Counted from the stretch's first letter, positions 33,695-55,098 are shown. The stretch is 64,000 bases of DNA from an uncultured archaeon (GCA_964619365.1 CAZUDQ010000001.1:118503-182502); one strand, 5' to 3'. Notes: a model not told the origin generated them from the sequence alone. Made by a program: numbers and translations.

Positions 33695-34765
33695 ATGATA
33701 CCTATTGCAAAACCACTTATTGGCCAGGAGGAAAAATCAGCCGTAAATGATGTCCTAAATTCCGGCATGATTGCAGAAGGGCCAAGGGTAAAAGAATTTG
33801 AAGAGAATTTCGCGGAGTTCTGTGGGACAAAACACGCAGTTGCGGTTAATTCGGGGACTGCTGCACTTCATGTAGCGCTCATGGCAGCGGGAATAAAGCC
33901 AGGTGATGAAGTCATAACAACACCGTTTAGCTTCATTGCAACAGGGAATTCTATTCTTATGGCGGGCGCAAAACCCGTCTTTTGCGATATTGATTCAAAA
34001 ACCTTCAACATCAGCCCAGAAAGCATTAAAGAGGCCATAAGCGACAAAACCAGGGCAATAATGCCTGTGCATCTTTTTGGGCAGTGTGCTGACATGAGTG
34101 CAATTAATGAAATCGCGCAAGACTCGGGTGTGCGAGTCATCGAAGACGCCTGTCAAGCACACGCTGCGGAGTGGAAAGGAGTAAAAGCGGGCGCTCTTGG
34201 AGATGTTGCCGGCTTCTCATTTTACCCGACAAAGAATATGACGACTTCAGAAGGTGGTATGGTTACGACAAACGATGATAAAATAGCCAAGATGTCAAGA
34301 ATATACCGCAATCACGGAATGGCACGCAGGTATTACCACGATTACATGGGCTTTAACTACCGGATGACAGATATCTGCGCTGCAATCGGTCTTGCTCAAC
34401 TAAGAAAGCTTGACGGCTTTACAAAAAAGCGCCGCGATAATGCAAATTATCTTGATAATAATCTAAACGGTGTTGTAACTCCATATGTCTCGCCTGATGC
34501 AAAGCATGTTTACCACCAGTACACAATAATGGTGGAGAATCGCGATACTGTTATCGAAAAACTAAAGGAAGCCGAAATCGGTTGCGGGGTGTATTATCCT
34601 GTTCCGATAAACGAGCAGACTTATTACAAAGAACTTGGATATTCTACACAAAGCACGCCAAACTCAAATGATGTCGCAAAAAAGGTTCTTTCACTTCCAG
34701 TTCATCCGTCTGTTACAGAAGACAATCTTAAGCTAATTGCAAATACGCTAAATAATATAGCATAA
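33695..34765 (+). CDS. wbpE: DegT/DnrJ/EryC1 PLP-dependent sugar aminotransferase (WbpE-like, UDP-2-acetamido-3-amino-uronate forming)
   Basis: DegT-family motifs (FCGTKHAVAVNSGTAALH, PLP-Lys context SFYPTKNMTTSEGG). Sits in an operon with WbpB/WbpA/WbpD homologs. Confidence 0.8.
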   Translation: MIPIAKPLIGQEEKSAVNDVLNSGMIAEGPRVKEFEENFAEFCGTKHAVAVNSGTAALHVALMAAGIKPGDEVITTPFSFIATGNSILMAGAKPVFCDIDSKTFNISPESIKEAISDKTRAIMPVHLFGQCADMSAINEIAQDSGVRVIEDACQAHAAEWKGVKAGALGDVAGFSFYPTKNMTTSEGGMVTTNDDKIAKMSRIYRNHGMARRYYHDYMGFNYRMTDICAAIGLAQLRKLDGFTKKRRDNANYLDNNLNGVVTPYVSPDAKHVYHQYTIMVENRDTVIEKLKEAEIGCGVYYPVPINEQTYYKELGYSTQSTPNSNDVAKKVLSLPVHPSVTEDNLKLIANTLNNIA

Positions 34766-34766
34766 A

Positions 34767-35390
34767 ATGAGGATATTATTACTTTCGCCACACACTGATG
34801 ATGTAGAACTTGGAGCTGGGGCAAGTGTCTCGCGTTTTGTCCGTGAGGGTCATGAGATAAAATGGATTGCATTCTCAAGTTGCGAGTCTTCACTACCTTC
34901 AGGTTTTGCTAAAGGTCAATTGAGGGGTGAGTTCGAAGAATCTGCAAAGGTTTTGGGCATTAAAGATATTACTTGTATGGACTTTTCTAACAGGACGTTT
35001 TTGGGTGGGCGCCAAAAGATACTCGATAAATTAATCGAAGTAAAAAAGGACTTTTCTCCGGAACTTATACTCTGCCCTTCGCGTTCTGATTTACATCAGG
35101 ATCACCAAGTTGTCTTTGAGGAAGCTTTTCGCGCATTTAAAAAAAGTTCGAGCATACTCGGGTATGAGGAGCCCTGGAATAATCTTGAATTCAAACCTTC
35201 TTTTTTCCAAAAGGTGACTGAAGAGGACATGAACAAAAAGTTGCTTGCATTATCAAAATACGAGACGCAAGGGACTCTCTCTCGCAATTACTTCGACGAA
35301 GATTTCATAAAGGGTCTTGGGCGCGTTCGTGGCGTACAGTGTAATTCACTATTTGCAGAGGCCTTTGAAGTATATAGATGGATTCAATAA
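34767..35390 (+). CDS. PIG-L/LmbE family N-acetylglucosaminyl deacetylase
   Basis: LSPHTDDVELGAG (HxDD-type zinc motif) and downstream HQDH. Confidence 0.7.
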   Translation: MRILLLSPHTDDVELGAGASVSRFVREGHEIKWIAFSSCESSLPSGFAKGQLRGEFEESAKVLGIKDITCMDFSNRTFLGGRQKILDKLIEVKKDFSPELILCPSRSDLHQDHQVVFEEAFRAFKKSSSILGYEEPWNNLEFKPSFFQKVTEEDMNKKLLALSKYETQGTLSRNYFDEDFIKGLGRVRGVQCNSLFAEAFEVYRWIQ

Positions 35391-36442
35391 CAGTTCTTGT
35401 AACAGGGGCGGGAGCGCCGGGCATTGCCGGGACGATATACTCACTTAAGAACAACCCTGACAACCGCAGTATCCGCATAGTAGGTGTTGATATGAAAGAA
35501 GACGTTGTTGGAAAATACCTCTGCGACGCTTTTTTTAAGATTCCTGCACCTTCTGAACGAGGTTATCTGGACACAGTTATACGAATCTGTGACAATGAAG
35601 GTGTTGATGTCATTTTACCTCAGACTACAAACGAACTTTATCCTCTTTCACAAGGAAAAGAGGCTCTGGAAAAAGCTGGAATAAAACTTGCTCTTTCAAA
35701 CGCGGATGCAATCGAAAAAAGTAACGATAAATACGAGCTTTTTAAGCTCTGTGAAAAGCTTGGCGTGCCTGTGCCAAAATACGCTCTTGTAAGTGATTTT
35801 GAGTCTCTCATGTCTTTTGCAGGCAAGCTAGGCTTTCCAAATAAGCCTTTTGTCATAAAACCGCCTGTTGCAAGCGGTATGCGGGGCCTTAGGATTGTGG
35901 ACGATGAAAAATCGCTTAAAGAAATGTTTTATGATGAAAAGCCAAATGGCGCGTATTGCAGAAGCGAACAACTGCGAACAACACTTGGCGAAAAGTTCCC
36001 GCCGCTTCTTGTTATGGAATACCTTCCTGGTGATGAGTACTCTGTTGACTGCTTTAGGGGAGAAAGCAAGAATGTTGCTATTCCACGAAAACGGGATCTC
36101 ATAAGAACGGGAATCACATTTAACGGAACGCTTGAAGAAAGAAAAGATATCATTGAGTGGTCCACTAAACTCGCTGAAGAAATTGGTCTTGAGTACTGCT
36201 TTGGGTTTCAGTATAAGCTTGACGAAAAGGGAGTGCCAAAGATGCTTGAAAGCAATCCACGAGTCCAGGGGACTATGGTTGCCGCAACAATTGGTGGGGC
36301 AAATGTCATATACGCTTCAATACTTCTTGGGCTGGGTGAAAGAGCACCGGAGTTTAACATAAAGTGGGGTGCGAGGATAATGAGATATTGGGGAGGTATT
36401 GGCAGCCTTGATGACAAACGAATAGCCGACATTCTAGTATGA
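35378..36442 (+). CDS. ATP-grasp domain ligase (carboxylate-amine ligase type)
   Basis: FVIKPPVASGMRGLRIV, EYLPGDEYSVDCF and the general ATP-grasp B/C-domain layout. Confidence 0.7.
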   Translation: MDSITVLVTGAGAPGIAGTIYSLKNNPDNRSIRIVGVDMKEDVVGKYLCDAFFKIPAPSERGYLDTVIRICDNEGVDVILPQTTNELYPLSQGKEALEKAGIKLALSNADAIEKSNDKYELFKLCEKLGVPVPKYALVSDFESLMSFAGKLGFPNKPFVIKPPVASGMRGLRIVDDEKSLKEMFYDEKPNGAYCRSEQLRTTLGEKFPPLLVMEYLPGDEYSVDCFRGESKNVAIPRKRDLIRTGITFNGTLEERKDIIEWSTKLAEEIGLEYCFGFQYKLDEKGVPKMLESNPRVQGTMVAATIGGANVIYASILLGLGERAPEFNIKWGARIMRYWGGIGSLDDKRIADILV

Positions 36443-37050
36443 AATCTTGGGAAAAATATCAGGGCCTTCTAATGACGGGAAACTGGCACGTCCACAGCAA
36501 TTATACTGATGGGCAGGATTCTGTGCTTCGTATGTGCGATGCTGCAGTTGGCGCCAGGCTCCCACTTCTTGCGTTTACAGAACACGTAAGAAAAGAACTC
36601 TCTTATGATTTTGACGCTTTTTTGTCTGATCTAAAATCAGTAAGAGCCGCGTTCCCGGAAATTGTTATTTTAAGTGGGTGTGAAGCAAAAATTCTTCCTG
36701 GGGGGGACATAGATGCTCCACCGGAACTGATAAAAACTGTTGATTATCCCATAGTTTCTTTCCATTCTTTTGAGGGTGGTCGGGACGAGTATCTTGAAGC
36801 CCTAAAAAAGGCAGTAAACGTTCCTGAGGTATGTGCATGGGGGCATCCTGGGGCTCTAGCAGAAAAAAGAGCTTTTGAGTTTTCTGATGAAGAATTAAAT
36901 GAAGTTTTTGGTATTATGGCAAAAAACAAGGTTCTTTTAGAATCAAACGAAAAATATGGGGTGCCAAAAAAGGACTGGGAAGACCTTGCTGTAAATGCGG
37001 GAGTCAGCTTGGTTCGGGGCCGCGATTCCCATTCTACAGGAGACATTTAG
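36439..37050 (+). CDS. PHP-domain phosphoesterase
   Basis: [13 protein letters not shown]...FTEHV metal-binding His/Asp pattern of PHP (polymerase/histidinol-phosphatase) domains. Confidence 0.5.
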
Positions 37051-37055
37051 AAAAG

Positions 37056-37553
37056 ATGGTAAAAATCCATGAGAGTGCAGAAGTCTCAGAAAAGGCGAAA
37101 ATCGGTGAAGGAACAAGTATATGGCATCAAGCTCAAGTTCGTGAGAATGCAGTAATCGGAAAGGACTGTAATATTGGAAAGGGCGTCTATATAGACTCTG
37201 GTGTAAAAATCGGGGACGCCTGCAAAATCCAGAATTATGTTTCAGTCTATCACGGTGTTGAGATAGAAGATGACGTATTTGTCGGACCGTCGGCAACATT
37301 CACAAACGACTTTAGGCCTCGCGCATTCATCTGGAATGAAGAAAAGGTTGGGAAGACACTTGTCAAAAAAGGCGCATCAATCGGAGCGAATTCCACAATA
37401 GTCTGTGGTGTTGAGATTGGAGAATATGCTATGGTCGGTGCGGGAAGCGTTGTTACAAAAGACGTTCCACCTTTTGGGCTTGTCTATGGAAACCCTGCAA
37501 AGCTGTGCGGGAAGGTAAATAAAGAAGGTGAAGTAATTGAAAGATATGATTAA
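37056..37553 (+). CDS. wbpD: Hexapeptide-repeat (LbH) sugar N-acetyltransferase (WbpD-like)
   Basis: Repeated [LIV]G-x4 hexapeptides ([25 protein letters not shown]...). Adjacent to WbpB/WbpA homologs. Confidence 0.75.
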
Positions 37554-38484
37554 AGCGGCAGTTATCGGTGTCGGTAACATGGGTAAGCATCACGCCCGAG
37601 TTTATTCAGAATTAAAGGACTGCGCGCTTGTAGCAGTTGTTGATAAGAACGAAAAAGCGGCAAAGGAAGTCGCAACACAATTTGACTGTGATTATTATAC
37701 TGATGTATCAGACATTATTGGAAAGGTAGACTGCGCGAGTGTTGTAGTACCAACCTTCCTGCACAGGGATGTCGCAATCACTCTTCTTGAAAACGGGATT
37801 GATGTGCTTCTTGAAAAGCCTATTGCAATGTCAACAGGGGAAGCTGATGAAATAATACGTTGCGCCGAGGAAAACGGGAGAATACTACAAATTGGACATA
37901 TAGAGCGCTTCAACCCGGCAATAATTGCAGCAAGAGACGAAATTAACGATAACCCGATAGCTCTTGAAGCAAATCGTATTGGACCTTCTGGAGGTCGCAT
38001 ATCTGATTGTGGCGTTATCTTAGACCTTATGATCCATGACGTGGATTTGATTTTAAGTCTTGTCGATTCGGCGGTCAAAGATGTTTATGCGAGCTCAAAA
38101 ACAATGTCGGGAAAGCATGAAGATTACGCAAAGGCTCTCCTCACTTTTGAAAACGGGACTATTGCAAGTGTTTGTGCCAGCAGGATAAGCCAAAAGAGGG
38201 AAAGAACGCTTAACATCACACTTCCGGATAAGTATTTATGTGTTGACTGCATGTCAAAATCACTTTCCATACACAAACAAGGCAAATACGAAAAGGAAGA
38301 TGGCGTCACCAGTTTCAGTGACATTGTAGAACGTCCACTTATCAGGCAAAGTGAACCCTTAAAGCTTGAACTTGAAAGTTTCTTGTCATGTGTCAGAGAA
38401 AGGACCGTGCCTGTTGTGACGGGTGCCCAGGGAAAACTAGCACTTGAGATTGTAGAAGGGATTTTAGAGGCGGCAAATGGGTGA
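37537..38484 (+). CDS. wbpB: Gfo/Idh/MocA family oxidoreductase (WbpB-like UDP-GlcNAcA 3-dehydrogenase)
   Basis: N-terminal Rossmann [15 protein letters not shown] motif (LLEKPIAMS), ~315 aa. Confidence 0.8.
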
Positions 38485-39739
38485 AGTTATAGCAGTCTAC
38501 GGCCAGGGGAAGATGGGACTACCTCTAGCACAAGTCTTAGCAAAATATTTTAAGGTTTATGGTGTTGACATCAATAAATCCCTGATTGATGCACTTTCCC
38601 GCGGGGAAGACGTTCTCCCAGAAGAGCCTGGGGTTGGCGAACTCATAAAGAAGAACTCTGAATCTGGAAGTTATGTTGCAACAACAGATTTTAGTCTGGC
38701 ATCAAAAAACGCAACTATCCACATTATCCTTGTTCCAACCCTTATCAAAGAAAATAAGGTTGATTTATCGATTGCAAAAAGCGTTGCGCGTGAGATATCA
38801 AAGAGATTAAAAAAAGGAGATATTGTTATTACAGAATGTACTATGCCTCCGGGCTCAACAAAATTACTACTACCTATTCTTGAGGAGTCTGGACTTAAGC
38901 TTGGCGATTTTTCAATCGCGCATGCCCCTGAAAGAACGTACTCTGGCCATGCTATTCGTGATATTGAAGGCGAGTATCCAAAGATACTTGGAACAAGCGA
39001 CGCGCGTTCCTTAGACAGGCTAAAAAAGGTCTATGAAACGATAAATTCAAAGGGCGTCATTACTATGCCAGGCGTCAAAGAGGCTGAGCTTGTAAAAGTC
39101 TTTGAAGGCTGCTACCGTGACCTTAATATCGCTCTTGCAAACGAGCTTTCCTATGTCTGTGAAAGAGAAGGAGTCGATGCCGCAAGCGTCTTTTCGGCAG
39201 CAAATACTCAAAAGTATTGCAAAATACATAATCCAGGTTATGTTGGAGGGCACTGCATCCCATATTACCCATGGTTTGTGATTGATGAGAAAACAAAACT
39301 CATGAAAACTGGGAGGGGAATAAACGAAGCAGTAATAGAACGCCTGATATCTAAATGCGATGGGGGACTAAAAGATGTTGGGATAATTCCAAAGGATGCA
39401 AAAATAGTCGTTTTGGGACTTACTTTTAGGGGTGGCGTGCGCGAGTTTGAGCATAGCGCTGCGTTTCCGTTTGTCAAAAGGGCAAAAGAAGAGTTTGAGG
39501 AGGTACTTGCTTATGACCCACTATGTTCTAAGGAGGATTATGCCCGTTTTGGAGTAGAGAAAATAGAGCTGCCATGCGAGGCTGATTGTGCAATAGTACT
39601 TGCAGACCATGATGAGTTCTTGGGGACTGGGGTTTTGAAATCATGCCCAACAATCAAGGTTCTAATTGACGGCAGGGGTATCTGTGACCTTAATGAGCTG
39701 CGCAAGAGAGGAATTATCTGCGGAGGTCTTGGTAAATGA
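38477..39739 (+). CDS. wbpA: UDP-N-acetyl-D-glucosamine/mannosamine 6-dehydrogenase (UDP-glucose/GDP-mannose dehydrogenase family; WbpA/WecC-like)
   Basis: Three-domain UDPGDH architecture with catalytic Cys context (GGHCIPYYP), 420 aa. Confidence 0.85.
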   Translation: MGEVIAVYGQGKMGLPLAQVLAKYFKVYGVDINKSLIDALSRGEDVLPEEPGVGELIKKNSESGSYVATTDFSLASKNATIHIILVPTLIKENKVDLSIAKSVAREISKRLKKGDIVITECTMPPGSTKLLLPILEESGLKLGDFSIAHAPERTYSGHAIRDIEGEYPKILGTSDARSLDRLKKVYETINSKGVITMPGVKEAELVKVFEGCYRDLNIALANELSYVCEREGVDAASVFSAANTQKYCKIHNPGYVGGHCIPYYPWFVIDEKTKLMKTGRGINEAVIERLISKCDGGLKDVGIIPKDAKIVVLGLTFRGGVREFEHSAAFPFVKRAKEEFEEVLAYDPLCSKEDYARFGVEKIELPCEADCAIVLADHDEFLGTGVLKSCPTIKVLIDGRGICDLNELRKRGIICGGLGK

Positions 39740-41004
39740 ATATCTTAATCATGTGTCGCTGGTATTACCCACATTGCGGTGGGGCGACAGTGCGTGTTCA
39801 TAACTTCGCAAAATACTTGACAAAGGCCGGACATAATGTCCACATTCTGACACACAATCCAAAAAGTATCGAACAGTGCAACAAAGATGATGTGGCGCCC
39901 TTATTTGAAGAAAGTGCAGAAGGGTTTAAGATAACTCGCCTGCCTTACCGTAGTTTTTTGGGGTTGAAAGGCAACTGGGGAACATCAATCCCTGAAATGG
40001 CAGTTCTTGCAACAAAGATAATTGAGAAGGAAAATATCGATATAATCATGTCGCATAACCCACCTTATCTTGTCGGAGCTTCAAGCTACAAAGCCTCATT
40101 TGCAACAGGCGTTCCGTTTGTGACTATTGTCCATGACATTTGGGGGGCATCACACTACGGCGCTTTAGAAAACGCAGTCGGAAAGACTCTTGAAGCATTC
40201 GTACTTAAGAAATCAAAGAAAATCATTGTTCCTGTCGAAGGAATAGGAAAAGAGCTTTCAGAAACTTATGGCATCCCAAAAGAAAGGTTTGCAACAGCAA
40301 AAACAGGCGTTGATTCAAATGAATTTAGGCCTATTGCAATCGGTCTTAAGGAGAAAGCCATTTTAAGGGAAAAGCTTCTTGAAAATGGAGCGCCTAAGGA
40401 AAAGATTAATGACTGCCTTTCTGCAAAATCAAGACCTATTCTTTTCTTGGGAAACCTTGCACCATGGAAAGGTGGGATGTTTTTCTTGCGTGCTGCAAAA
40501 GAGATTCTGAAGGAAGAACCTAGTGCGTTTTTTGTTCTTGTTGGCCACGGCGCGCAGTTTGAGGAGCTTATAAGTGAAACAAAGAAACTGGGTATATCGG
40601 ACCGCGTTCTTTTTGCAGGCGTCCTTAGGCACGAAGACTTGCCACTCATAATAAACCTTGCAAAAGTCTGTGTTTCAACATTCCCAAAGCCAAGCTCTGT
40701 GGGGAGGAAAGCTAACATGCAGGCAAGGCCTGTTTCAACATTAGAGTTTCTATCCTGCGGAAGGCCTGTTGTCGTAAGTGACGTTCCGGGAATCCGCGAC
40801 ATAATAATAAAGGATGGAGAAAGTGGTATTTTATTCGAGCCAGAGAACATCGGCGAACTGACAAAAGGAGTTCTTTTGTTACTGAAAAAGAAGGGTAAAG
40901 CAGAATCCCTTGGACGGGAAGCAAGAAAGAATATTAAGGACGAAACTTGGGAAGTGACTGCAAAAGTCGTTGAAATGGTATTAAACGAAGTTCTAAAAGA
41001 TTAA
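39736..41004 (+). CDS. Glycosyltransferase family 4 (GT-B, retaining)
   Basis: E-x7-E motif region STLEFLSCGRPVVVSDVPGIRD, typical GT4 N-terminal acceptor domain. Confidence 0.8.
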   Translation: MNILIMCRWYYPHCGGATVRVHNFAKYLTKAGHNVHILTHNPKSIEQCNKDDVAPLFEESAEGFKITRLPYRSFLGLKGNWGTSIPEMAVLATKIIEKENIDIIMSHNPPYLVGASSYKASFATGVPFVTIVHDIWGASHYGALENAVGKTLEAFVLKKSKKIIVPVEGIGKELSETYGIPKERFATAKTGVDSNEFRPIAIGLKEKAILREKLLENGAPKEKINDCLSAKSRPILFLGNLAPWKGGMFFLRAAKEILKEEPSAFFVLVGHGAQFEELISETKKLGISDRVLFAGVLRHEDLPLIINLAKVCVSTFPKPSSVGRKANMQARPVSTLEFLSCGRPVVVSDVPGIRDIIIKDGESGILFEPENIGELTKGVLLLLKKKGKAESLGREARKNIKDETWEVTAKVVEMVLNEVLKD

Positions 41005-46115: not shown

Positions 46116-47950
46116 TGGGTGCAGTTATATTTGGTAGTTGTGGGGATAGTAAAAAACTAGAAAATCCAGGTGAAGATTTTGATTTCTATACCAAAGGTGA
46201 GATCAATATCTGGAGAAAATGCTCGCCATTCTTCTTCTCAGGCAAAATGCCAATTTTAAACAATGATGAAGATGTGGGTATAATAATACAGGGTTATGTA
46301 ATTCTAAATGAAGATATACAGGATTCTACTAAGAATTGGAAGGAAACGGCTAGTAGGCTTATTGCGGAATATGAACGAGGGGGCACCGAATCTATTTTAA
46401 ATTCTATAAAAACTGGAGCATTCAATATCATTTTATTTGATTTTAGAACGAATCTGATGTTTGTTATAAATGATAGATTTGGGTTATTCCCACTTTTTTA
46501 TCATCAAGATAAATACAATCTGGTATTTGGTACAAGGACCAAAGAAATTTTAAATATAAAAAAATTTGAACCAGATTGGACATCTATAGCAGAGTTCTTA
46601 GAATATGGGTATGTTCTCGGGGATAGAACATACTTCGAGGGGGTCAGGCTTATGGGGCCTGGATCAGTATTAAGTTACAATCTTGGTGACAAGACAATTA
46701 AAATAGAAAGTTATTGGGAAATTAATTATGATAAAAATATATCAGAAAAAGATATGGCGAGTGAAGCTCTAAGATTATTTAAAACTTCGTGCAAGCGCTT
46801 ATATACAAAAGATTATGGATACATTATACCGTTAAGCGGTGGACTTGATTCAAGGCTAAATGCGTATGGATTTTCCAATGTGGGCAAGATTACTACACTT
46901 ACCTTCGACCGGAGCAAAAGTGGCAAGGAGTATAAGATAGCAAAAAAGATTTCAGATAAAATTGGGTGTAATCATATTTTTAAAAGTATAGAATCCAAAG
47001 GTATACTTGACTCGCCAAATAATTTTTTAAGGATAACTGAGGGGTATGAAGACATGTCACTTAATTTTCTAAAGTTATACCAAGAGTTCGAGGGCAAAGT
47101 TATTGTGGATGGTTACCTTGGTGATGTAGTTTTAGGTGGAACGTATTATAGTAAATTAAAAAAGAGGCCTGGAGATATCCTAAACCAGTTTTTAGGGAAG
47201 TCTAAGGTGACCGATGGGTGTAATGGATTAAAAAAGGAACTAAATGTTTCTTTTTTCACAGAAAAGGAATTAGAAAACCTGTTTTCTAATGAAATATCTA
47301 AAAAAATAAAGGATGGGATTAATGCCCATAATGATTTCTTAACAAAAGAAATGGAAATTCTATCCAATAAATTTAAGTATAAGGAAGAGATGATTGAGTT
47401 TTTTAAGATAAATAATCGGGGCCGACGTTTTATAAATCTGGGGGGGCATTGGCAGGAGGATAAAAATGAACGCATAGTACCTTTCTTTGACTATGATTTC
47501 TTTGATTTTTGTATGAATATTCCTATTGAAGAGCGAGCCTTTCACAAAGTATATTATAAACTTCTGTCAAAAATGGATGATTTGGGTAAAATAGTTTATA
47601 ACCACAGCGGTATAAGCGCAAACTCGCCATATAAATTACAACTTATGACTGAATATTTAAATGAGATATGGCTTAAACAAAAGAAGTTTATAAATCGTCT
47701 TACAAAAGGCAGATATTGTAAACCCGATACCTATGCCCCAATAGCTGAGTGGGTTAGAGACTCTGAGAACGAAAAAACTATAATGGATTCAATGAATTGG
47801 ACTCTTATAAACAAGAGCGAAGTTGAAAGATTATTCAATGAACACAAGAATTTTACGGGGGATAATAGTAAAAAGATAGTCAGACTTTTCTCATTTTCAC
47901 TTTGGTGGGATAAAATCTATTTGAAACATTTAGAAGAACATCAAACATGA
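46112..47950 (+). CDS. Asparagine synthetase (AsnB)-like amidotransferase lacking the N-terminal Cys nucleophile
   Basis: PP-loop synthetase domain IPLSGGLDSRLNAY is conserved. The N-terminus is MMGAVIFG rather than MCGI, so the glutaminase Cys2 is absent. 612 aa. Confidence 0.7.
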   Translation: MMGAVIFGSCGDSKKLENPGEDFDFYTKGEINIWRKCSPFFFSGKMPILNNDEDVGIIIQGYVILNEDIQDSTKNWKETASRLIAEYERGGTESILNSIKTGAFNIILFDFRTNLMFVINDRFGLFPLFYHQDKYNLVFGTRTKEILNIKKFEPDWTSIAEFLEYGYVLGDRTYFEGVRLMGPGSVLSYNLGDKTIKIESYWEINYDKNISEKDMASEALRLFKTSCKRLYTKDYGYIIPLSGGLDSRLNAYGFSNVGKITTLTFDRSKSGKEYKIAKKISDKIGCNHIFKSIESKGILDSPNNFLRITEGYEDMSLNFLKLYQEFEGKVIVDGYLGDVVLGGTYYSKLKKRPGDILNQFLGKSKVTDGCNGLKKELNVSFFTEKELENLFSNEISKKIKDGINAHNDFLTKEMEILSNKFKYKEEMIEFFKINNRGRRFINLGGHWQEDKNERIVPFFDYDFFDFCMNIPIEERAFHKVYYKLLSKMDDLGKIVYNHSGISANSPYKLQLMTEYLNEIWLKQKKFINRLTKGRYCKPDTYAPIAEWVRDSENEKTIMDSMNWTLINKSEVERLFNEHKNFTGDNSKKIVRLFSFSLWWDKIYLKHLEEHQT

Positions 47951-47973
47951 TATATCCTAGCCTCTAATCAAGA

Positions 47974-49467
47974 CTATATTGAATTCGCATCAGCTTCTCC
48001 AAAGAACTTATCTTCAAGCTTAAGGAAAGAAAGGAAAAATCGCATCTCTTTTTCGCTAAATGCCTTAAGAACTCCCATGAGTGCAAAATAAAAGAGTGCT
48101 CCAATGCCACATACGAGGATTATCTCTATCCAGCCTGAAGGGGAAAACGCTAAGACAATAAATGCCATTGCAATTGACGAGATAACTGCCTTTAGAAGGA
48201 ATGGCGCACTTACTTCAAGTTTTACAAACTTCTTTGAGATTATTTGTGAGCTTATGTAAAGTCCGACAAAGGCAATAAATGTTGAAATGGCAGCACCAAT
48301 CAGTCCAAGTGTTGGTACAAGGAATAGGTTAAGTGCTATATTGAGTATTCCAAAGGCTGCAAGTAAAATAGCGTTCCAATAAACTTTTTTCTCTATGAAA
48401 AACACTGTTGAATTTATTGTAAAAAGAGATAGGAATATTGTCGAAATGGCAACAATCGGTGTCACCCACGCAGCACCTGCCAAAAACTCGTTTGTTGCCA
48501 TAGATCTTGTGAACTCAGTTGCAAGGATACTAAGACCAAATGCTGCAGGTATTGCAAGAAGCATGAAATATCGGAAACTGTAGCTTAGGTATTTCATGAC
48601 ATCTTTGCTTCTTGCCTCATCATGGGCGCGCGTGAGTGGGACAAGAAGGTTTATACGTATGGGGTTAAGAAGGATGGAGACTGATGCCCCTATTGTATAG
48701 GCTACAGAATAGACACCAACGGCTGAGGCCCCCAGGAAAAAACCTATGACGTACCTATCGCCAAGATTAAGGAGGTTTGATGAAAAGCTTCCTGCAACCA
48801 TTGGAAAACCAAACTTGACATACTCAAGAGACTGTCTGATGCTTGGTACGGAAGGACCAAAGGTCTTACATACTGCAAGTACACAAAAAATCAGAACTGA
48901 AAGTTGGACTACAATAAAGGACATTACAACCTCATATAAACCCATTCCAAAAAGCAAGAAAATTGATGCCAGTAAAAGAGGACCAAGACTATAGATTATA
49001 AGAAGCGTCGAATAACTGCCCATGCGGCGTTTTATGCGGAATGACTCAAGGAAAGGAGTTAATGGTGCTTGAACTATGAGTAGAATCGCTCCAAGTTGTA
49101 TCACTGCCGTTGCGTCTGGTGCTCCAAAGACCGTATTTGCCAAAAAACTAGCTGAAAAAAATAATACAAGAGCTCCAATAAAAGACATCAATAATGAAAA
49201 GGTTCCGGCAGAGAATATCCCCTTTGAAATCTTCTTTTTGTCATTTTCAGATGACAGCATGCGTATAACACCATAGTTGGAACCCAGATTTATAAATGGC
49301 TGGATAAACGCCAAGGTTACAATAAGGGTTGAATAAACGCCGTACCCTGCCACGCCAAGATAAAGAGTAAGTATCGGAAGAAAGATTATTGGCCTAAGGC
49401 GCATTACTGCCTCTGATATCGCGACTATTCCGACATCCTTTGTAAATTTCTTATATTTGTCACTCAT
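47974..49467 (-). CDS. Wzx/AglR-type oligosaccharide flippase (MOP superfamily, Polysacc_synt)
   Basis: 497 aa with ~14 predicted TM helices. Polysaccharide-biosynthesis flippase-like N-terminus. Located in the glycan locus. Confidence 0.75.
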   Translation of the reverse strand: MSDKYKKFTKDVGIVAISEAVMRLRPIIFLPILTLYLGVAGYGVYSTLIVTLAFIQPFINLGSNYGVIRMLSSENDKKKISKGIFSAGTFSLLMSFIGALVLFFSASFLANTVFGAPDATAVIQLGAILLIVQAPLTPFLESFRIKRRMGSYSTLLIIYSLGPLLLASIFLLFGMGLYEVVMSFIVVQLSVLIFCVLAVCKTFGPSVPSIRQSLEYVKFGFPMVAGSFSSNLLNLGDRYVIGFFLGASAVGVYSVAYTIGASVSILLNPIRINLLVPLTRAHDEARSKDVMKYLSYSFRYFMLLAIPAAFGLSILATEFTRSMATNEFLAGAAWVTPIVAISTIFLSLFTINSTVFFIEKKVYWNAILLAAFGILNIALNLFLVPTLGLIGAAISTFIAFVGLYISSQIISKKFVKLEVSAPFLLKAVISSIAMAFIVLAFSPSGWIEIILVCGIGALFYFALMGVLKAFSEKEMRFFLSFLKLEDKFFGEADANSI

Positions 49468-50369
49468 TGTCTACAGAGTTCCTTAATACCCAGTTCCAGT
49501 GGGGTTTTTGGTTCCCATAAAAGTTCTTTTTTCGCTTTTGAAATATCTGCATGTGAATGCAATATATCTCCTAGTCTAGGCGGCTCAAATGTTATTTTTG
49601 AATTTGATTCACGAGCTAGGACTATTATTTCGGCAAGCTCAAGAACACTTATAGGCGTTCCAGAGGCTATGTTATAAACTCCGGTTTTTCCGACTGCGGC
49701 TACGTTCGCGCGCGCGACATCGCGCGCGTTGACAAAATCGCGCGTTGCCGTGCCATCACCATATATCACGAGAGGCTCTTTTGTTTTTGCGCGTTCTATG
49801 AATTTTGGAATGACTGCGGCATAATCTGATTTTGGATTCTGACGCGCACCATAAACATTAAAATATCTTAGAGAGACACAATTAATACCATAAAGGGAGG
49901 AATATTCCTGCATTAATTCTTCGCCATCAAGCTTGCTCTGTGCATATGGACTCATGGGAAAGGTCTTTGAATCCTCTTTTTTAGGAAGTCCTGGCAAGTC
50001 GCCATAAACAGCTGAGGACGATGCGAAAACTACGTTTTTTGTTCCTGAAGAACGCGCGGCCTCAAGAACGTTTTTTGTGCCTTCAACATTTATCTTATAG
50101 CAAAGATCAGGTTCTGCAATGCTTTGGGGTACACTTGCCATTGCCGCTTCATGGAATACCGTTTCAATGCCCCTAAAAGAGTCTAAAAGGTTTTGCTTGT
50201 CGGTTATATCGCCTTTTACTAGTTCGATGCCCAATGTTTGGAGGAATTGCTTTGAGGGGTTGCCGGGCGCGCTAAGATTATCGAGCACCCTTACTTCCTT
50301 AGAGTCAGAAACCAAGTGTTCTGCTATATGGCTTCCAATAAAGCCCGCACCACCAGTTACAAGATACAT
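49464..50369 (-). CDS. NAD-dependent nucleotide-sugar epimerase (UDP-Glc/GlcNAc 4-epimerase-like SDR)
   Basis: MYLVTGGAGFIGSHIAEHL, YAQSK catalytic motif, 301 aa. Confidence 0.8.
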   Translation of the reverse strand: MYLVTGGAGFIGSHIAEHLVSDSKEVRVLDNLSAPGNPSKQFLQTLGIELVKGDITDKQNLLDSFRGIETVFHEAAMASVPQSIAEPDLCYKINVEGTKNVLEAARSSGTKNVVFASSSAVYGDLPGLPKKEDSKTFPMSPYAQSKLDGEELMQEYSSLYGINCVSLRYFNVYGARQNPKSDYAAVIPKFIERAKTKEPLVIYGDGTATRDFVNARDVARANVAAVGKTGVYNIASGTPISVLELAEIIVLARESNSKITFEPPRLGDILHSHADISKAKKELLWEPKTPLELGIKELCRQ

Positions 50370-50428: not shown

Positions 50429-51385
50429 TCAGAATGGGGCGTAAAGAAGAATCGCCAGAAGGACAAACGGTATTTCCATAAGTCCGAAATACTCAACAAG
50501 ACGCTTTTCTGAGATTGGTCCAAACTTTTTTATCATGATTTGTGCAAGACCTACTGGTTTTCCTGGACATGTAAGCTTGCCCCCCTTTGGCGTGCCCCAC
50601 CAGCCTGTTGTTGGAAAGCCGTTTTTTGCCTTTATGACAAAATCCACTATGTATGGAATCATCACGACGACAAGAGCAATCTCAAAGTGTCCTAAGATGC
50701 CCGCACATGCGATTGTAGCGCCAATCATGAGTGTTCCTACATCTCCCATAAAGACTCGCGCTGGATGCTTGTTAAAGCACATAAAGGCTATAAGTGCGCC
50801 AGAGAGCGCAAGGAGTAGTGCTATTGATGCTAAACTGCCTGACCATATCGCAAGAGGTAAGAGTCCAAAAGAGATTATTATCCCTAGACCCGCCTCCATT
50901 CCATTAAAGCCTGCAAACATGTTTGTGAGATTTGCCATTACAGTAACGCCAAGCGGGACAAGAACCAAAGGATAGATTATCGGTAAAGAAACAATACCCA
51001 CAAAGGGCACAAGAAACTCTGGTGAGGATATCGCAAAAAGCGCTATTGGTATTGCTGCAATGACTGGAAGAACCGTCTTTACAGAGTGTCTTATTGAAAA
51101 AAGGTCGTCAATAAGGCCGATAAAGGAAGCAAGAATTGCAGTAAGCGCCCCCGCAATCAATCCAGAATAAAGTCCTGCCGGCGCAACAAAAACAAAAAAA
51201 GCTATTGCGAGGGCAAATCCAAATACAATAGAAAGTCCGCCTATCTCGGCAAGCTCTGGGTGGCCTTCTTTGTTTACATCTTTTCCTACGCGCCCTGCTG
51301 CCTTTAAACGTGGTATTATAAGTGGCAGTAAGGCAAATGTGCCCACAAAGGCTACTAGAAAGGTTCCAAATAGAAGAACTGACAT
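50429..51385 (-). CDS. aglH: UDP-GlcNAc:dolichyl-phosphate GlcNAc-1-phosphate transferase (AglH / GPT / MraY-WecA superfamily)
   Basis: Polytopic membrane protein with NMFAGFNG and FMGDVGTLMIGA signatures of polyprenyl-phosphate HexNAc-1-P transferases. Confidence 0.8.
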   Translation of the reverse strand: MSVLLFGTFLVAFVGTFALLPLIIPRLKAAGRVGKDVNKEGHPELAEIGGLSIVFGFALAIAFFVFVAPAGLYSGLIAGALTAILASFIGLIDDLFSIRHSVKTVLPVIAAIPIALFAISSPEFLVPFVGIVSLPIIYPLVLVPLGVTVMANLTNMFAGFNGMEAGLGIIISFGLLPLAIWSGSLASIALLLALSGALIAFMCFNKHPARVFMGDVGTLMIGATIACAGILGHFEIALVVVMIPYIVDFVIKAKNGFPTTGWWGTPKGGKLTCPGKPVGLAQIMIKKFGPISEKRLVEYFGLMEIPFVLLAILLYAPF

Positions 51386-51399
51386 TTTAGTCTTATTTC

Positions 51400-54300
51400 T
51401 TATTGTATGCGGCTTTTACAGAACTCATCTGTTCCAACACAATAGAAAGTCACATCAACCAGACCTGCAAGATCAGATTTTAACTGCTCGACAATCTCCC
51501 TTTGGATTTCGCAGCTCGCATCACATTCTTCCGTGTAGAAAGCTTCGATTACGGTTTTGCCATCACTTAAGCAGGACTCGCTATCTAACATCTTAAGTGC
51601 CGCAACGTATTCTTCGAGTTCCTTATTTAGTGTGAGTTTTTCTGTTTTGTTGTCATGGGCCACCCCTATTGTCGAACAAAGCTCTTTTGGCTCGCCGTTT
51701 GTTGCAATACATGTGAACGCAGCAAGGACGCCACCTTCGGGCCCTACGATGCCTTCTTTTGCAAAGCGACAGTCCCAGACTACTGCAGGGAAGGTAGAAA
51801 GGTTGTATTCTTTGGCCTTTGCATTGCCGTTGGCATCAAACTTCATCTCAAGCTCCTCCTTATAAGCGTCTGCGACCTTGTCACCTATTGAAACTAGCGT
51901 TACTTCAAAATGAAGTGTTTCATTCTGGAGCGGGTGTCCTTCTGATGCACCATAAGCTTCTTCTGGCGGGAGCGTTAGGTTCTTTGTCTCACCAAGCTTC
52001 ATGTCATTTACTCCAGCGTCAAACCCTGCAATCATCTGTCCGGCACCGATAGTAAACTCAAGAGGTGACCCCCCTATTGAAGACTCAAAGACTGTACCGT
52101 CATCAAGAGTACCTGTGTAATGCACCTTTACTAAAGAGCCTTCTCTTGCAAGGTTCGGGTCAACTGAAAAAAGCCCTTCTTCTGAAACTAGAGGCTCTGA
52201 AATATCTTCTGAACCTGGGACAGGGACCTTATCCGGATAATTTATCCTAAATATTTTAACATTTGGGTACGCGCCGTTTACTGCATCTGCATCAGTCACA
52301 AGTTCGTAATACTCAAGGTCTCTTGCATCTTTGACATAAAGCTCAAAGAACATGGAGTCGCTCCAGCGCTCTGGAGCATGTATGAGTAACTGCGAATCAA
52401 GCCGTGCTAGTTCATCTTTGCCTAAAGAAAGAACGTCGTTTAAGGGAACGCGCTCGCAGTTCTCAGATATCAGGAACTCTCCTGTTGAGCCGTCTGCATA
52501 TTCAAATAGGAGTATGCCACCATAGGCATTTCCATCAGCAAAAGGAAGTCCTCCCGAATTTATCGCGTAAAGCTGGCTTTGTGTTATTGTCTTTCTTTCT
52601 CCATTTTCGACAAGGAATGTCGTCTTAGATGAAGTTGTATATTCCGGGCGGCATATATATTGCCCTTCTTTTGCAAGAGAATATTGGTTAAAGACAGGAT
52701 ATCCTGCTGAGCGGGTAACATGCCCTGTGCCGTTTTCCTCGCGGGCAACGTGCCAGTCAAGAGTCATGTCGCAACATTCTGTTGGCTGCTCTTGGCAACA
52801 CTTTTTGTCAACAACTTTAGTCAAAGCATCGCGCAGGCAGACAATTCCGGAGTCGCATGAGTAAGTTCCATCCTCACTCTTCTTTGCACGCTCTCCTGTT
52901 TCTATATTCTGGCAGACAAACCCTTGGTCGCATGTGCCATTGGAATTTGTCATAAAGCCATTTTGATACTCATAGAAGTTTGTGCCGAGGAACGTGAGTG
53001 CTCCTGCTTTTCCAACAAGTGAATAGTCAAGGATTATATATTTTGTCTTTAAGTCCTTGTTCCAGGGCTGCTCCATTAGCCACTTTGTCGCGGCGTCTTC
53101 GCCACTTTCATTATAGAAGAACCTTGCCGTGCGCATTATGTATTCTTCATTTGCCTGCGTAGGCTCGGTGATTACAGTCGTGTCTGAAAGCGCAGTTATA
53201 ATGTGGCCGTAATCCCACCATGTAAAGACATAATCCCCCGGAACATACGTTCCGTCAATAAACTGGCCGTTTTCTACATTATTTGAAAGCCACTCTATAC
53301 CTGTGACCCATGCCGGGTCGATTGAAGGCGTTCTTGCCGCATAGCCCCAGGAATATGCCGGAGACATCGGCGCGAAGACAAAAATTGCAATAAGTGGGAT
53401 TATTACTATTGGAAGAATAACATTTATCTTTGAAAATTCTGTTCTGTCCTTGGGGAAGAATATTCCGACTAAGGAACCTAAGAGAAGGAAACCAAGTGAC
53501 TGAGAGAATCCAAGTCTTGCCTCACCCCATACAAAGACCATAGCAACTATAAAGAACATAAGGGTTATACAGTAGGCAAGAAGATAGTTATAAAATTTCT
53601 CTTTTTCCTGTTTAAGAAACCAGTAGATTAGCGTTACTGGAAGTAGTATTAGCATAAAGAGTGAAAGACCTTCTGCGATGCCGTAATAATCAAGACCTAC
53701 ATTAAGCTTCTGAGCTATTGAACCTGACGCAAGAGCACCCTGCTCTGAAATAGTCTTTTCGACAAGGAAATTTCTTGTGCCTTCTCCAGCTATGTTGCTG
53801 TAAAGAGAAGATACTGAATTGACTATGTTTGATGGGCCATAATAAACAAGAGCCCCTATTGCCACAACCAGTATGACAACAAAAAGAGGCAACAAGAACT
53901 TCTTTTCAATCGGTTTTTTGGAGTCTTCTTTTTCCTTAAAGAAGTATACTCTTGATACTTCAGAAAGTACTGCAAAAAGAGCGAAGAACCCGAATGAGCC
54001 TATATAGAATATTGAAGGTAAGCCTCCTCCGATTGCAGTTATCCCGCAAAGCGAGACTATTCCTGCGATAAGTCCTGCGCGCGTTATTTTCCACATGTCA
54101 TAACGTCCGATTATTGTAAAGACTGCGAATATGCCAAGTGCGACAAACGGGACTGCATATAAGAACTGTGCACCCCCTGACCAGGTTATGGCAAGCATCA
54201 TAAGTGTGATTCCAGACAATGCGGCAAAAATGACTGAATCACGCGTGCGCTCAACCTTAAATGACTTGGTAAGAAGATAGAAGGCAAAAACTGCTATTGC

Positions 54301-55098
54301 CATACCCATTATATCTTCTTCTATGGCGCCAGCCGTTGACTTTGTAAGAATCATTGGCATTGTTGCAAAGAGGAAGCCTGCTATAACGCCTGTCTTCCAG
54401 TCGCCTGAAAGCTCTTTCATAAAGAAATAAATCATAATTGCGGCAAACGCTGAAATCAAAAGCGGATACAAGATTATTGCCTGCTCAATTCCGATTCCTG
54501 AAGTAAATGCCAGGAACGCATTGTAATAATAAGGCAGGAGTTGACTACCCACTAACCCATAGGGTGGGTTTACGCGGTAATCGGTCGCCAGAATTTCGCC
54601 GTTTTGGTAAAGATCGTGGGTGAATTTATAGTGGTAATACGGGTCGTCCATAGAAATCGGATTTCCAGCCATCGTTCCTTCCATTGCAGGATATGCTCTG
54701 AAACAAACGGCTGTTGCGACAAGAAAGATTATGATTGTCATCTGCAAGCCCAGCTTCTTTGAGACAAGAAGGAGCGCAAGGAGAGTATATACTGCAAAAA
54801 GGAGTATCAAAAGAGGGTTAGCTCCCGTAAACACCGCAATTGCGGCAAGAATTGCTGTTAAGAATATAATGAGATTTGAAAGGTCGCCTTCATAGGGGCC
54901 AATGTTTGTGACTGTCAATATAAGTCCCGCGACAGCAATGACTGCGCAGACTAGGCCCAGAATGATTTGAAATGGTGCAAAAATCGCCCATATGACAAGG
55001 CAGGCAAGAAGCCCCGCAGCAAACAAATAGTGTATAGGCATCCCAGATATACTTGAGATATCTAGAGTCTTTGCCGTTGTTTCGTTTTTTGAGACCAT
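51400..55098 (-). CDS. aglB: AglB/STT3 oligosaccharyltransferase fused to a C-terminal FKBP-type peptidyl-prolyl isomerase domain and a terminal 8-Cys domain (1232 aa)
   Basis: About 17 TM helices, then the WWDYGH catalytic motif (DNA ~53207-53224). Downstream is an FKBP domain VKVHYTGTLDDGTVFESSIGGSPLEFTIGAGQMIAGFDAGVNDMKLGE...LHFEVTLVSI (DNA ~51880-52150). After that comes a ~150-aa domain with 8 Cys. Confidence 0.85.
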   Translation of the reverse strand: MVSKNETTAKTLDISSISGMPIHYLFAAGLLACLVIWAIFAPFQIILGLVCAVIAVAGLILTVTNIGPYEGDLSNLIIFLTAILAAIAVFTGANPLLILLFAVYTLLALLLVSKKLGLQMTIIIFLVATAVCFRAYPAMEGTMAGNPISMDDPYYHYKFTHDLYQNGEILATDYRVNPPYGLVGSQLLPYYYNAFLAFTSGIGIEQAIILYPLLISAFAAIMIYFFMKELSGDWKTGVIAGFLFATMPMILTKSTAGAIEEDIMGMAIAVFAFYLLTKSFKVERTRDSVIFAALSGITLMMLAITWSGGAQFLYAVPFVALGIFAVFTIIGRYDMWKITRAGLIAGIVSLCGITAIGGGLPSIFYIGSFGFFALFAVLSEVSRVYFFKEKEDSKKPIEKKFLLPLFVVILVVAIGALVYYGPSNIVNSVSSLYSNIAGEGTRNFLVEKTISEQGALASGSIAQKLNVGLDYYGIAEGLSLFMLILLPVTLIYWFLKQEKEKFYNYLLAYCITLMFFIVAMVFVWGEARLGFSQSLGFLLLGSLVGIFFPKDRTEFSKINVILPIVIIPLIAIFVFAPMSPAYSWGYAARTPSIDPAWVTGIEWLSNNVENGQFIDGTYVPGDYVFTWWDYGHIITALSDTTVITEPTQANEEYIMRTARFFYNESGEDAATKWLMEQPWNKDLKTKYIILDYSLVGKAGALTFLGTNFYEYQNGFMTNSNGTCDQGFVCQNIETGERAKKSEDGTYSCDSGIVCLRDALTKVVDKKCCQEQPTECCDMTLDWHVAREENGTGHVTRSAGYPVFNQYSLAKEGQYICRPEYTTSSKTTFLVENGERKTITQSQLYAINSGGLPFADGNAYGGILLFEYADGSTGEFLISENCERVPLNDVLSLGKDELARLDSQLLIHAPERWSDSMFFELYVKDARDLEYYELVTDADAVNGAYPNVKIFRINYPDKVPVPGSEDISEPLVSEEGLFSVDPNLAREGSLVKVHYTGTLDDGTVFESSIGGSPLEFTIGAGQMIAGFDAGVNDMKLGETKNLTLPPEEAYGASEGHPLQNETLHFEVTLVSIGDKVADAYKEELEMKFDANGNAKAKEYNLSTFPAVVWDCRFAKEGIVGPEGGVLAAFTCIATNGEPKELCSTIGVAHDNKTEKLTLNKELEEYVAALKMLDSESCLSDGKTVIEAFYTEECDASCEIQREIVEQLKSDLAGLVDVTFYCVGTDEFCKSRIQ

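Follow-up and report, generated by a model that had tools for sequence, protein, structure and literature searches.

N-linked glycosylation in archaea has been characterized experimentally in few cultivated lineages. Among the closest described systems is the agl pathway of Methanococcus maripaludis and M. voltae, which combines AglB, AglH-type priming, and the acetamido-sugar genes MMP0350-0353, and whose N-glycan contains GlcNAc3NAcA and ManNAc3NAmA6Thr. In the eukaryotic oligosaccharyltransferase (OST), the catalytic subunit STT3 is accompanied by the thioredoxin-fold subunits Ost3/Ost6 or TUSC3/MagT1. Here, we analyze a stretch of 64,000 nucleotides from an uncultured archaeon (GCA_964619365.1 CAZUDQ010000001.1:118503-182502; hereafter the window), in which positions 33695 to 55098 probably constitute an agl-type N-glycosylation island of an uncultivated, Altiarchaeota-related archaeon, composed of a conserved core on the minus strand and a lineage-specific block on the plus strand. 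The locus thereby offers a testable parts list for an uncultivated lineage. It is of otherwise moderate interest, and its most novel element is an AglB fused to domains associated with protein folding.

The locus consists of 18 tightly packed open reading frames (ORFs). The plus strand carries 14 of them (33695-47950) and the minus strand the other four (47974-55098); the two sets are convergent, with 24 nt between the facing stop codons. All 18 were recovered with the order, orientation, and coordinates reported in a first-pass annotation of the sequence, and Pfam and NCBIfam scans agreed with its domain calls at the family level for every gene. The inventory nevertheless deviates from that annotation in its details, in that the rfbG gene is frameshifted, the GFO/IDH/MocA oxidoreductase is GnnA-like, AglB carries extra domains, and the AsnB-like protein lacks an N-terminal cysteine. 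No ORF of at least 100 residues in the locus was left without a family assignment. On one side, the locus is flanked by the housekeeping genes for a Ca-ATPase and uL16, and on the other by genes for a HAD hydrolase, ABCE1, Rpo7, and an H+-pyrophosphatase; apart from the locus and the adjacent HAD gene, no glycan-related families were found among the 50 window ORFs scanned against Pfam, and a scan against Rfam at the gathering threshold returned no RNA families in the window. The closest ABCE1 proteins are 64-70% identical to that of the window, the only named ones coming from metagenome-assembled genomes labeled Candidatus Altiarchaeota, and the next group, from Thermococcus, follows at about 55% identity. 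Judged by ABCE1, the sole marker used for taxonomy, the host is an uncultivated archaeon related to Candidatus Altiarchaeota, a group whose best-studied member has two membranes and a periplasm (PMC6098224).

The minus-strand core comprises the following features, with AglB resolved into its domains.

47974..49467, minus strand: MOP-superfamily (Wzx-like) flippase candidate (PF01943, E = 1e-24)
49464..50369, minus strand: GalE-like NDP-sugar 4-epimerase (TIGR01179, 197 bits against a cutoff of 262)
50429..51385, minus strand: polyprenyl-phosphate N-acetylhexosamine-1-phosphate (HexNAc-1-P) transferase of the AglH/WecA/Alg7 family (PF00953, E = 1e-32)
51403..51852, minus strand: Cys-rich C-terminal domain of AglB, about 150 residues (approximately 1083-1232)
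51892..52149, minus strand: FKBP-type peptidyl-prolyl isomerase domain of AglB, residues 984-1069 (PF00254, E = 2e-25, 89 bits against a cutoff of 21)
52939..54741, minus strand: STT3 catalytic core of AglB, residues approximately 120-720 (PF02516, E = 2e-13)
54742-55098, minus strand: N-terminal hydrophobic extension of AglB, preceding the catalytic core
55120..55746, minus strand: HAD-family hydrolase (PF13419, E = 1e-43), directly upstream of AglB and outside the stretch first annotated

The gene order ABCE1(-)-HAD-AglB(FKBP)-AglH is kept in at least 10 related loci, followed by the GalE-like epimerase in most of them and by the flippase in some. In each related locus that extends far enough to tell, AglH comes immediately after AglB; this position and the PF00953 match identify it as the priming transferase of an agl island. 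Relatives of the epimerase (48-52% identical) adjoin AglH in most related loci, while flippase relatives (43% identical) come after AglH in two of them (L008 and L009). In all related loci, a relative of the HAD hydrolase (49-58% identical) separates ABCE1 from AglB, and by this synteny the enzyme may be part of the glycosylation core. Beyond the core, the sugar genes vary, with NeuB/CMP genes in L008, methyltransferases in L009, and the series UDP-glucose (UDPG) dehydrogenase-GT4-GT4-GT2-GtrA-PMT in L010. This pattern, in which the core is constant and the sugar genes behind it change, supports a role of the core in N-glycosylation and, as far as gene order tells, the plus-strand block of the window, placed between the flippase and uL16, fills this lineage-specific variable slot.

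AglB is a protein of 1,232 residues, made up of the N-terminal hydrophobic extension, the STT3 core, the FKBP domain, and the Cys-rich C-terminal domain. All catalytic motifs of the STT3 family are present, that is, the DxD-type motif of external loop 1 and the TIXE, WWDYG, and DK motifs (SMDDPYYHYK at 149-158, TISEQ at 449-453, WWDYG at 627-631, and D691..K697), and none of them varies across six homologs. Hydrophobic segments are no longer seen after residue 583, and the WWDYG region aligns to the Archaeoglobus fulgidus AglB fragment 3vgp. The FKBP domain is well conserved, with Y994, F1015, I1023, G1025, F1026, and Y1049 among its invariant positions; its score and conserved active-site positions place it in the FKBP_C family, making it a predicted isomerase. 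In precomputed Pfam lists, PF02516 and PF00254 occur together in five of the six homologs, the sixth listing PF00254 only. The first-pass annotation, which had listed the gene as AglB, missed this unusual fusion protein with folding domains.

The C-terminal domain was more difficult to place, since direct Pfam scans gave nothing significant for it, nor for the N-terminal extension or the middle Cys-rich region. It contains eight invariant cysteines, and the order of its elements is permuted, with the cis-Pro-like FP(S/T)(L/V)VW-C leading and F(Y/F)xxxCxxC closing; the CxxC motif is found in five homologs, while the window's copy reads CDASC (CxxxC). A profile of the domain matched 118 sequences among 1.84 billion representatives, the strong matches being C termini, either of further AglB fusions or of proteins anchored in the membrane (e.g., P0264 and P0284), and the weak ones thioredoxin-fold proteins; this search alone tied the domain to thioredoxins. 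In colinear matches (e.g., P0284 and P0289), the C-terminal half of the thioredoxin precedes the CxxC half, whereas thioredoxins of normal order match the profile as two swapped segments. An AlphaFold (AF2) model built from six sequences reached a pLDDT of 78 and a pTM of 0.75, and its top Foldseek match in the PDB was an engineered, circularly permuted DsbA (1un2), with a probability of 0.94 but an E value of 0.02 and a TM score of 0.41, a match that is weak yet agrees with the profile search. Taken together, the domain may well adopt a circularly permuted thioredoxin/DsbA-like fold. P0264 and P0284 are genuine membrane-anchored proteins bearing the Cys-rich domain; in contrast, P0260 and P0257, which had been considered as free proteins composed of FKBP and this domain, turned out to be contig-edge fragments of AglB fusions.

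The overall architecture of this AglB was found in only six proteins among 5.8 billion at an E value of at most 1e-10, and a metagenome scan of public loci found the extension in about 12 loci. Another 60 or so AglB loci, more distantly related (21-32% identical), are devoid of it, with one exception, L039, which has an FKBP domain. In that locus (positions 5786-9075), an AglB relative of about 24% identity is apparently followed by an FKBP domain 45% identical to that of the window. From this distribution, the fusion of FKBP to AglB may have arisen or spread beyond the immediate clade. A search of the literature accessible to us yielded no description of an AglB fused to an FKBP, a peptidyl-prolyl isomerase, or a thioredoxin. 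If the fusion is functional, the coupling of glycosylation to oxidative or prolyl folding would have arisen in archaea too and not only in the eukaryotic OST, and the protein would represent a compact, single-chain system in which to study this coupling.

At the start of the plus-strand block, four genes encode a putative pathway to a diamino-uronic acid.

33695..34765, plus strand: DegT/DnrJ/EryC1-family sugar aminotransferase, candidate C-3 aminotransferase (WbpE/QdtB-like; PF01041, E = 1.5e-136)
37056..37553, plus strand: left-handed beta-helix N-acetyltransferase (WbpD/WlbB-like; Hexapep, E = 1e-27)
37537..38484, plus strand: GFO/IDH/MocA oxidoreductase of the GnnA/archaeal UDP-GlcNAc 3-dehydrogenase type (NF040723, 273 bits)
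38477..39739, plus strand: UDP-HexNAc-type nucleotide-sugar 6-dehydrogenase (TIGR03026, 306 bits against a cutoff of 190)

The acetyltransferase has as its top solved match 3mqg, which we take to be Bordetella WlbB, over its full length (160 bits, E = 3.5e-46, residues 1-161), as expected of a WbpD/WlbB-type enzyme. The aminotransferase matched 7b0d (299 bits), QdtB (259), WbpE (256), and perosamine synthase (255) in the PDB. The oxidoreductase had been described as WbpB-like; however, its best match in the PDB is GnnA (7bvj, 165 bits), no WbpB/WlbA entry appeared among its PDB matches at an E value of at most 1e-10, and the archaeal UDP-GlcNAc 3-dehydrogenase model NF040723, although its 273 bits fall below the cutoff of 450, is the top NCBIfam match by about 50 orders of magnitude. 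The closest solved structures to the 6-dehydrogenase are the UDP-ManNAc(A) dehydrogenase of Pyrococcus horikoshii (4r16) and Cap5O. A WbpI-type 2-epimerase was not encountered, since none of the 50 window ORFs covered by the Pfam scan contains an Epimerase_2 domain, but such a gene could lie outside the window. The most economical reading of these homologies is a route of the GnnA or Methanococcus kind, which oxidizes C-3 first and leads to a gluco-configured 2,3-diamino uronic acid, although the order of steps is inferred.

Three further genes are nested within this set and encode a deacetylase, a ligase, and a putative phosphatase.

34767..35390, plus strand: PIG-L/LmbE-family zinc de-N-acetylase (PF02585, E = 5e-17)
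35378..36442, plus strand: ATP-grasp carboxylate-amine ligase (ATPgrasp_Ter/CPS-like; PF15632, E = 1.6e-33)
36439..37050, plus strand: PHP-domain phosphoesterase with an HVH motif, predicted phosphatase partner of the ATP-grasp enzyme (PF02811, E = 3e-10)

The PIG-L protein has the motifs PHTDD and HQDH; its best solved relatives are, weakly, BshB-like and diacetylchitobiose deacetylases, and its only NCBIfam match is BshB1. The ATP-grasp protein has more than 1,400 homologs at an E value of at most 1e-20 in archaea and some bacteria, the best listed being 50-58% identical and coming from Methanoculleus, Methanofollis, Methanosarcina, Methanolobus, Thermococcus, Thermoplasmatales, DPANN lineages, and Calditrichia. 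The following genomic contexts of these homologs were compared with that of the window.

Thermococcus gammatolerans: GT2-DUF354-PIG-L-ATP-grasp, where the record ends, with hexapeptide, DegT, GFO, and UDPG dehydrogenase genes alongside
Methanofollis: GT2-DUF354-PIG-L-ATP-grasp-PHP, followed by UDPG dehydrogenase, with no DegT or GFO gene in the stretch examined
Methanolobus: DUF354-PIG-L-ATP-grasp-PHP, next to genes for DegT, GFO, and UDPG dehydrogenase
Calditrichia: PIG-L-ATP-grasp-HAD, in which HAD occupies the position of PHP, near a GFO gene

Because HAD replaces PHP in Calditrichia, the third enzyme of the cassette is presumably a phosphatase, and by these contexts PIG-L/ATP-grasp/PHP is a widespread, uncharacterized deacetylase-ligase-phosphatase cassette and a candidate for an equally widespread yet unknown sugar modification. 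In both T. gammatolerans and Methanolobus, the same hexapeptide-DegT-GFO-UDPG dehydrogenase set as in the window adjoins it. A literature search for a glycosylation cassette with DUF354 and ATP-grasp returned nothing relevant. Two side observations concern these clusters: in T. gammatolerans (L006, 4252-7011), the UDP-sugar 6-dehydrogenase of the diamino-sugar cluster contains an intein (Intein_splicing and LAGLIDADG_3), and in Methanolobus (L013, 6131-7300) genes for a further ATP-grasp paralog, for an AsnB-like protein, and for a polysaccharide deacetylase directly precede DUF354-PIG-L-ATP-grasp-PHP. AsnB-like and ATP-grasp amidoligases occur together repeatedly in such cassette clusters.

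As for its function, the cassette most likely carries out de-N-acetylation, re-acylation with a phosphorylated acid, and dephosphorylation, a proposal made by analogy with the PIG-L-then-ligase logic of bacillithiol and mycothiol synthesis and with Neisseria PglB2, in which an ATP-grasp replaces the acetyltransferase and puts a glyceramido group on an amino sugar (PMC11130364). Alternatively, and in our view somewhat unlikely, the ATP-grasp/PHP pair might leave the amines alone and instead join a phosphorylated amine (ethanolamine phosphate, serinol phosphate, or a phospho-amino acid) in amide linkage to the uronic acid at its C-6 carboxylate, followed by dephosphorylation. ATP-grasp enzymes activate carboxylates, the phosphatase partner would suit a phosphorylated amine, and four of the five cassette contexts, that of the window among them, include a 6-dehydrogenase, the Calditrichia locus being the one without it. 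The reaction would also resemble the formation of glucuronamide in Campylobacter, where the amidating ligase for the glucuronic acid of C. jejuni is an ATP-grasp enzyme, as well as the threonine amide of Methanococcus N-glycans; published work gives ethanolamine or serinol as the groups amidating the C. jejuni glucuronic acid. However, amidation at C-6 would leave unexplained why PIG-L is coupled to ATP-grasp, in overlapping or near-adjacent genes, in all five contexts, and an AsnB-like amidoligase is already available in the window for amidating a carboxylate. Returning to the acyl exchange, the 2,3-diacetamido-uronic acid of the first-pass annotation is upheld in part. The 3-dehydrogenase, aminotransferase, acetyltransferase, and 6-dehydrogenase are all present, and a diamino-uronic acid is likely; in contrast, WbpI is missing from the window and the PIG-L cassette implies that the uronic acid is probably not plainly di-N-acetylated but further modified.

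The glycosyltransferases of the block and the AsnB-like protein follow downstream.

39736..41004, plus strand: GT4 glycosyltransferase 1 (PF00534 and PF13439), with a GC content of 0.425, like the rest of the genome
41011..42159, plus strand: GT4 glycosyltransferase 2 (PF00534 and PF13439), with a GC content of 0.324, at the start of a low-GC island
45018..46115, plus strand: GT2 glycosyltransferase (PF00535, E = 2.6e-18), with a GC content of 0.347
46112..47950, plus strand: divergent AsnB-family amidoligase (PF00733, E = 1e-12; PF13537, E = 4e-8)

The N terminus of the AsnB-like protein reads L/MGAVIFG and has no MCG, hence no N-terminal Cys nucleophile; the enzyme plausibly uses ammonia or an amine directly and amidates a uronic acid. 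Across 41011-49467, the GC content per gene is 0.32-0.40, compared to 0.41-0.46 in the other genes measured, which suggests that this island is a horizontally acquired, variable part of the locus. Its members are the second GT4, rfbF, the rfbG remnant, the short-chain dehydrogenase/reductase (SDR), the GT2, the AsnB-like gene, and the flippase.

Within this island, three genes make up a CDP-hexose branch.

42362..43126, plus strand: glucose-1-phosphate cytidylyltransferase (RfbF/DdhA), full length (TIGR02623, 399 bits against a cutoff of 300)
43128..44080, plus strand: CDP-glucose 4,6-dehydratase-like (rfbG) gene, frameshifted near 43925-43940
44091..45017, plus strand: extended SDR (PF01370), candidate NDP-4-keto-6-deoxyhexose 4-reductase or uronate 4-epimerase

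The CDP-glucose 4,6-dehydratase model has 352 positions, of which the main rfbG-like ORF (43128-43961) covers only 2-278; the missing C terminus of the protein, LGWEPKFSFADGMKRTVSWY, is found as 47 codons in another frame at 43937-44080, an out-of-frame segment that runs to 44080 and includes EIRKQTLSSKKVKEKLGWEPKFSFADGMKRTVSWY. Joining the two frames near 43937 gives a protein of 317 residues that can be aligned with extended SDRs over its whole length. Its best family, by 11 orders of magnitude, is TIGR02622 (211.7 bits; cutoff, 278), and it keeps SSDKAYG, which we take to be the Asp-Lys signature of CDP-glucose dehydratases. The same frameshift is present in L011, a Logan contig of run SRR5581654 that is 100% identical, and in L012, an ENA contig of a separate assembly, which shows 6 single-nucleotide polymorphisms (SNPs) over 13.3 kb and no gaps. 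Since the lesion is reproduced in these two other public assemblies, it is real in this population, and an assembly artifact was rejected. We thus consider the dehydratase to be probably a pseudogene and the CDP-6-deoxyhexose branch to be probably inactive or decayed, so that the presence of this sugar in the glycan, as claimed at first, is doubtful. The first-pass annotation had proposed a comparison with the Ddh pathway as a check, and here the cytidylyltransferase is borne out, whereas an intact 4,6-dehydratase is not. A pathway to a 3,6-dideoxyhexose was rejected, given that no E1/E3 (DdhC/DdhD) genes were found in the block, whose sole pyridoxal phosphate enzyme is the DegT protein (RfbH, 217 bits against a cutoff of 423) and which holds no E3 reductase; lacking E1/E3, the branch could have yielded a 6-deoxyhexose at most. 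The SDR downstream has as its best PDB matches 6zl6 (120 bits), presumably a UDP-GlcA 4-epimerase, and 2pk3, a GDP-6-deoxy-D-lyxo-4-hexulose reductase (116 bits). A literature search for CDP-glucose in archaeal N-glycans found nothing relevant.

One could still argue that the CDP branch works, either with an active, 277-residue truncated dehydratase or by bypassing the frameshift, and that the glycan contains a CDP-derived 6-deoxyhexose. RfbF is intact and above its equivalog cutoff, the SDR, GT2, and AsnB-like genes downstream are intact as well, neither frame of the rfbG remnant has acquired further stop codons, and the SSDKAYG active-site motif is kept. We nonetheless regard this as unlikely, considering that the main ORF loses a conserved C-terminal segment of about 47 residues and that the frameshift recurs in three assemblies from different data sets, one of them with 6 SNPs over 13.3 kb; nor did signs of a slippery site come to light, though no search was aimed at one. 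Taking the branch as decayed, the frameshifted rfbG cautions against deducing the composition of a glycan directly from a gene inventory.

How firmly, then, can the locus be read as one N-glycosylation island? The AglB-linked assembly of a glycan proposed in the first-pass annotation agrees with what we find: a PF00953 priming transferase, three further glycosyltransferases, a MOP flippase, an AglB with all catalytic motifs, and neither Wzy nor Wzz. Several observations weigh on the other side. AglB itself is very remote from any solved AglB or STT3 (E of about 1e-4), and RfbF and the 6-dehydrogenase subfamily are the only biosynthetic enzymes that do not fall short of the NCBIfam equivalog cutoffs. 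Searches of solved and characterized homologs found no close characterized relative of the PIG-L, ATP-grasp, or PHP proteins, and the aminotransferase obtains nearly the same scores with enzymes acting at C-3 as with those acting at C-4. Furthermore, the plus-strand block converges on the core instead of being cotranscribed with it. When its genes were compared with related AglB loci (E value of at most 1e-10, at least half of the length covered), the only matches were weak ones (23-33% identical) of the 6-dehydrogenase, a GT4, and SDR paralogs. With no counterpart of the block in the relatives, its link to AglB is positional only. Finally, cells of Candidatus Altiarchaeum are embedded in a matrix of extracellular polymeric substances (EPS), making a nonprotein acceptor possible (PMC6098224).

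Alternatively, the plus-strand block (33695-47950) might build another glycoconjugate, be it an EPS or a capsule, a glycolipid, or a glycan that is O-linked or belongs to an S-layer, and the core would use sugars made elsewhere in the genome. The convergence of the block on the core across 24 nt, its absence from every related AglB locus, the low GC content of a part of it, and the EPS matrix of Altiarchaeum cells (PMC6098224) would all fit such a scenario. It is improbable in our estimation, as the block has no Wzy polymerase, chain-length regulator, or export gene of its own, the relatives carry variable sugar genes in the same slot after the core, and the priming transferase and flippase of the core are the only ones that Pfam detects in the 64-kb window. 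A Wzy-dependent polysaccharide locus was dismissed, with no Wzy polymerase, Wzz chain-length, or export genes in the locus by ORF calls and Pfam.

On the reading of the locus as an agl-type island, the following sequence of events can be proposed. The GnnA-type 3-dehydrogenase, the DegT aminotransferase, the WlbB-like acetyltransferase, and the 6-dehydrogenase would convert UDP-GlcNAc to a UDP-2,3-diamino-2,3-dideoxy-hexuronic acid, from which PIG-L would remove one N-acetyl group, with ATP-grasp and PHP installing another acyl group supplied as a phosphorylated acid. The two GT4 enzymes and the GT2 enzyme would lengthen the lipid-linked HexNAc to approximately a tetrasaccharide, and the Cys-less AsnB-like enzyme would amidate a carboxylate. 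The flippase would then bring the glycan outward, and AglB would transfer it to asparagine. The CDP-hexose branch (rfbF, the frameshifted rfbG, and the SDR) would stand apart from this scheme as a low-GC, probably acquired and probably decayed segment. It is tempting to speculate further, although we advance this double proposal only tentatively, that the OST of this Altiarchaeota-related clade captured two folding catalysts that act outside the cytoplasm, an FKBP and a permuted thioredoxin/DsbA-like CxxC domain, coupling N-glycosylation mechanically to prolyl isomerization and disulfide handling in a periplasm-like space as an independently arisen, single-chain analogue of the OST with Ost3/Ost6 or TUSC3, and that the PIG-L/ATP-grasp/phosphatase cassette provides the glycans of archaea, by a route not yet described, with amino-uronic acids N-acylated by groups other than acetyl.

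Elsewhere in the window, a protein of 1,630 residues with four Laminin_G_3 domains is encoded at 675-5567 on the minus strand. Its N terminus, MKDKAQTSLEYLLIIVVV, resembles an archaeal class III (type IV pilin-like) signal peptide, and it contains 6 N-X-S/T sequons compared to 17.6 +/- 3.7 expected from shuffles, a depletion that concerns a putative surface protein neighboring the glycosylation island. At 19087-21724 on the plus strand, a divergent member of the tubulin/FtsZ family (464 residues, E = 6e-17) that may be CetZ-like precedes an ORF of 407 residues without a Pfam family. At 21731-23469 on the minus strand, a myo-inositol-1-phosphate synthase adjoins a CDP-alcohol phosphatidyltransferase, a pair suggesting the synthesis of inositol phospholipids or of di-myo-inositol phosphate; no link of this pair to the glycan locus was seen.

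Compared with the described systems, the locus resembles the Methanococcus agl pathway in content, sharing with it AglB, PF00953 priming, and the set of 3-dehydrogenase, aminotransferase, acetyltransferase, and 6-dehydrogenase, the oxidoreductase having the archaeal UDP-GlcNAc 3-dehydrogenase model as its top NCBIfam match. Unlike that pathway, it belongs to another phylum, scores below the equivalog cutoffs, shows no 2-epimerase or acetamidino (AglXYZ-type) genes, and adds the PIG-L/ATP-grasp/PHP cassette, a decayed CDP-hexose branch, and the folding-catalyst domains of AglB. The predicted chemistry is the same as in the Wbp route of Pseudomonas aeruginosa (WbpA/B/E/D/I) and the Wlb route of Bordetella to UDP-ManNAc3NAcA, with a 3mqg-like acetyltransferase and WbpE among the top relatives of the aminotransferase; in contrast to these routes, the 3-dehydrogenase is GnnA-like, WbpI is absent from the window, and the 6-dehydrogenase is nearer to UDP-ManNAc dehydrogenases. 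The GnnA/GnnB route of lipid A synthesis (UDP-GlcNAc to UDP-GlcNAc3N) provides the closest solved homolog of the oxidoreductase, 7bvj, and the same pairing with a DegT aminotransferase, but in the window the pair is tied to N-acetylation and C-6 oxidation in a protein-glycosylation island and not to lipid A.

The remaining parts of the locus have other counterparts. With the Rfb/Ddh pathway of Salmonella and Yersinia, it shares a bona fide RfbF equivalog and a neighbor that best fits the CDP-glucose 4,6-dehydratase model and keeps SSDKAYG, although this dehydratase is frameshifted and there is no DdhC/DdhD. The cassette follows the logic of Neisseria PglB2 and of mycothiol and bacillithiol synthesis, namely an ATP-grasp enzyme in an amino-sugar pathway and a PIG-L enzyme that frees an amine for re-acylation, a likeness drawn at the level of logic; it differs in having a dedicated phosphatase and in forming a separate, uncharacterized family. 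Lastly, as in the eukaryotic OST, STT3 is joined to a thioredoxin-like CxxC module on the glycosylating side of the membrane, a likeness to Ost3/6 that we draw as an analogy; here, however, the module is covalently fused, probably circularly permuted, and placed beside an FKBP domain, and the window's copy carries CxxxC instead of CxxC.

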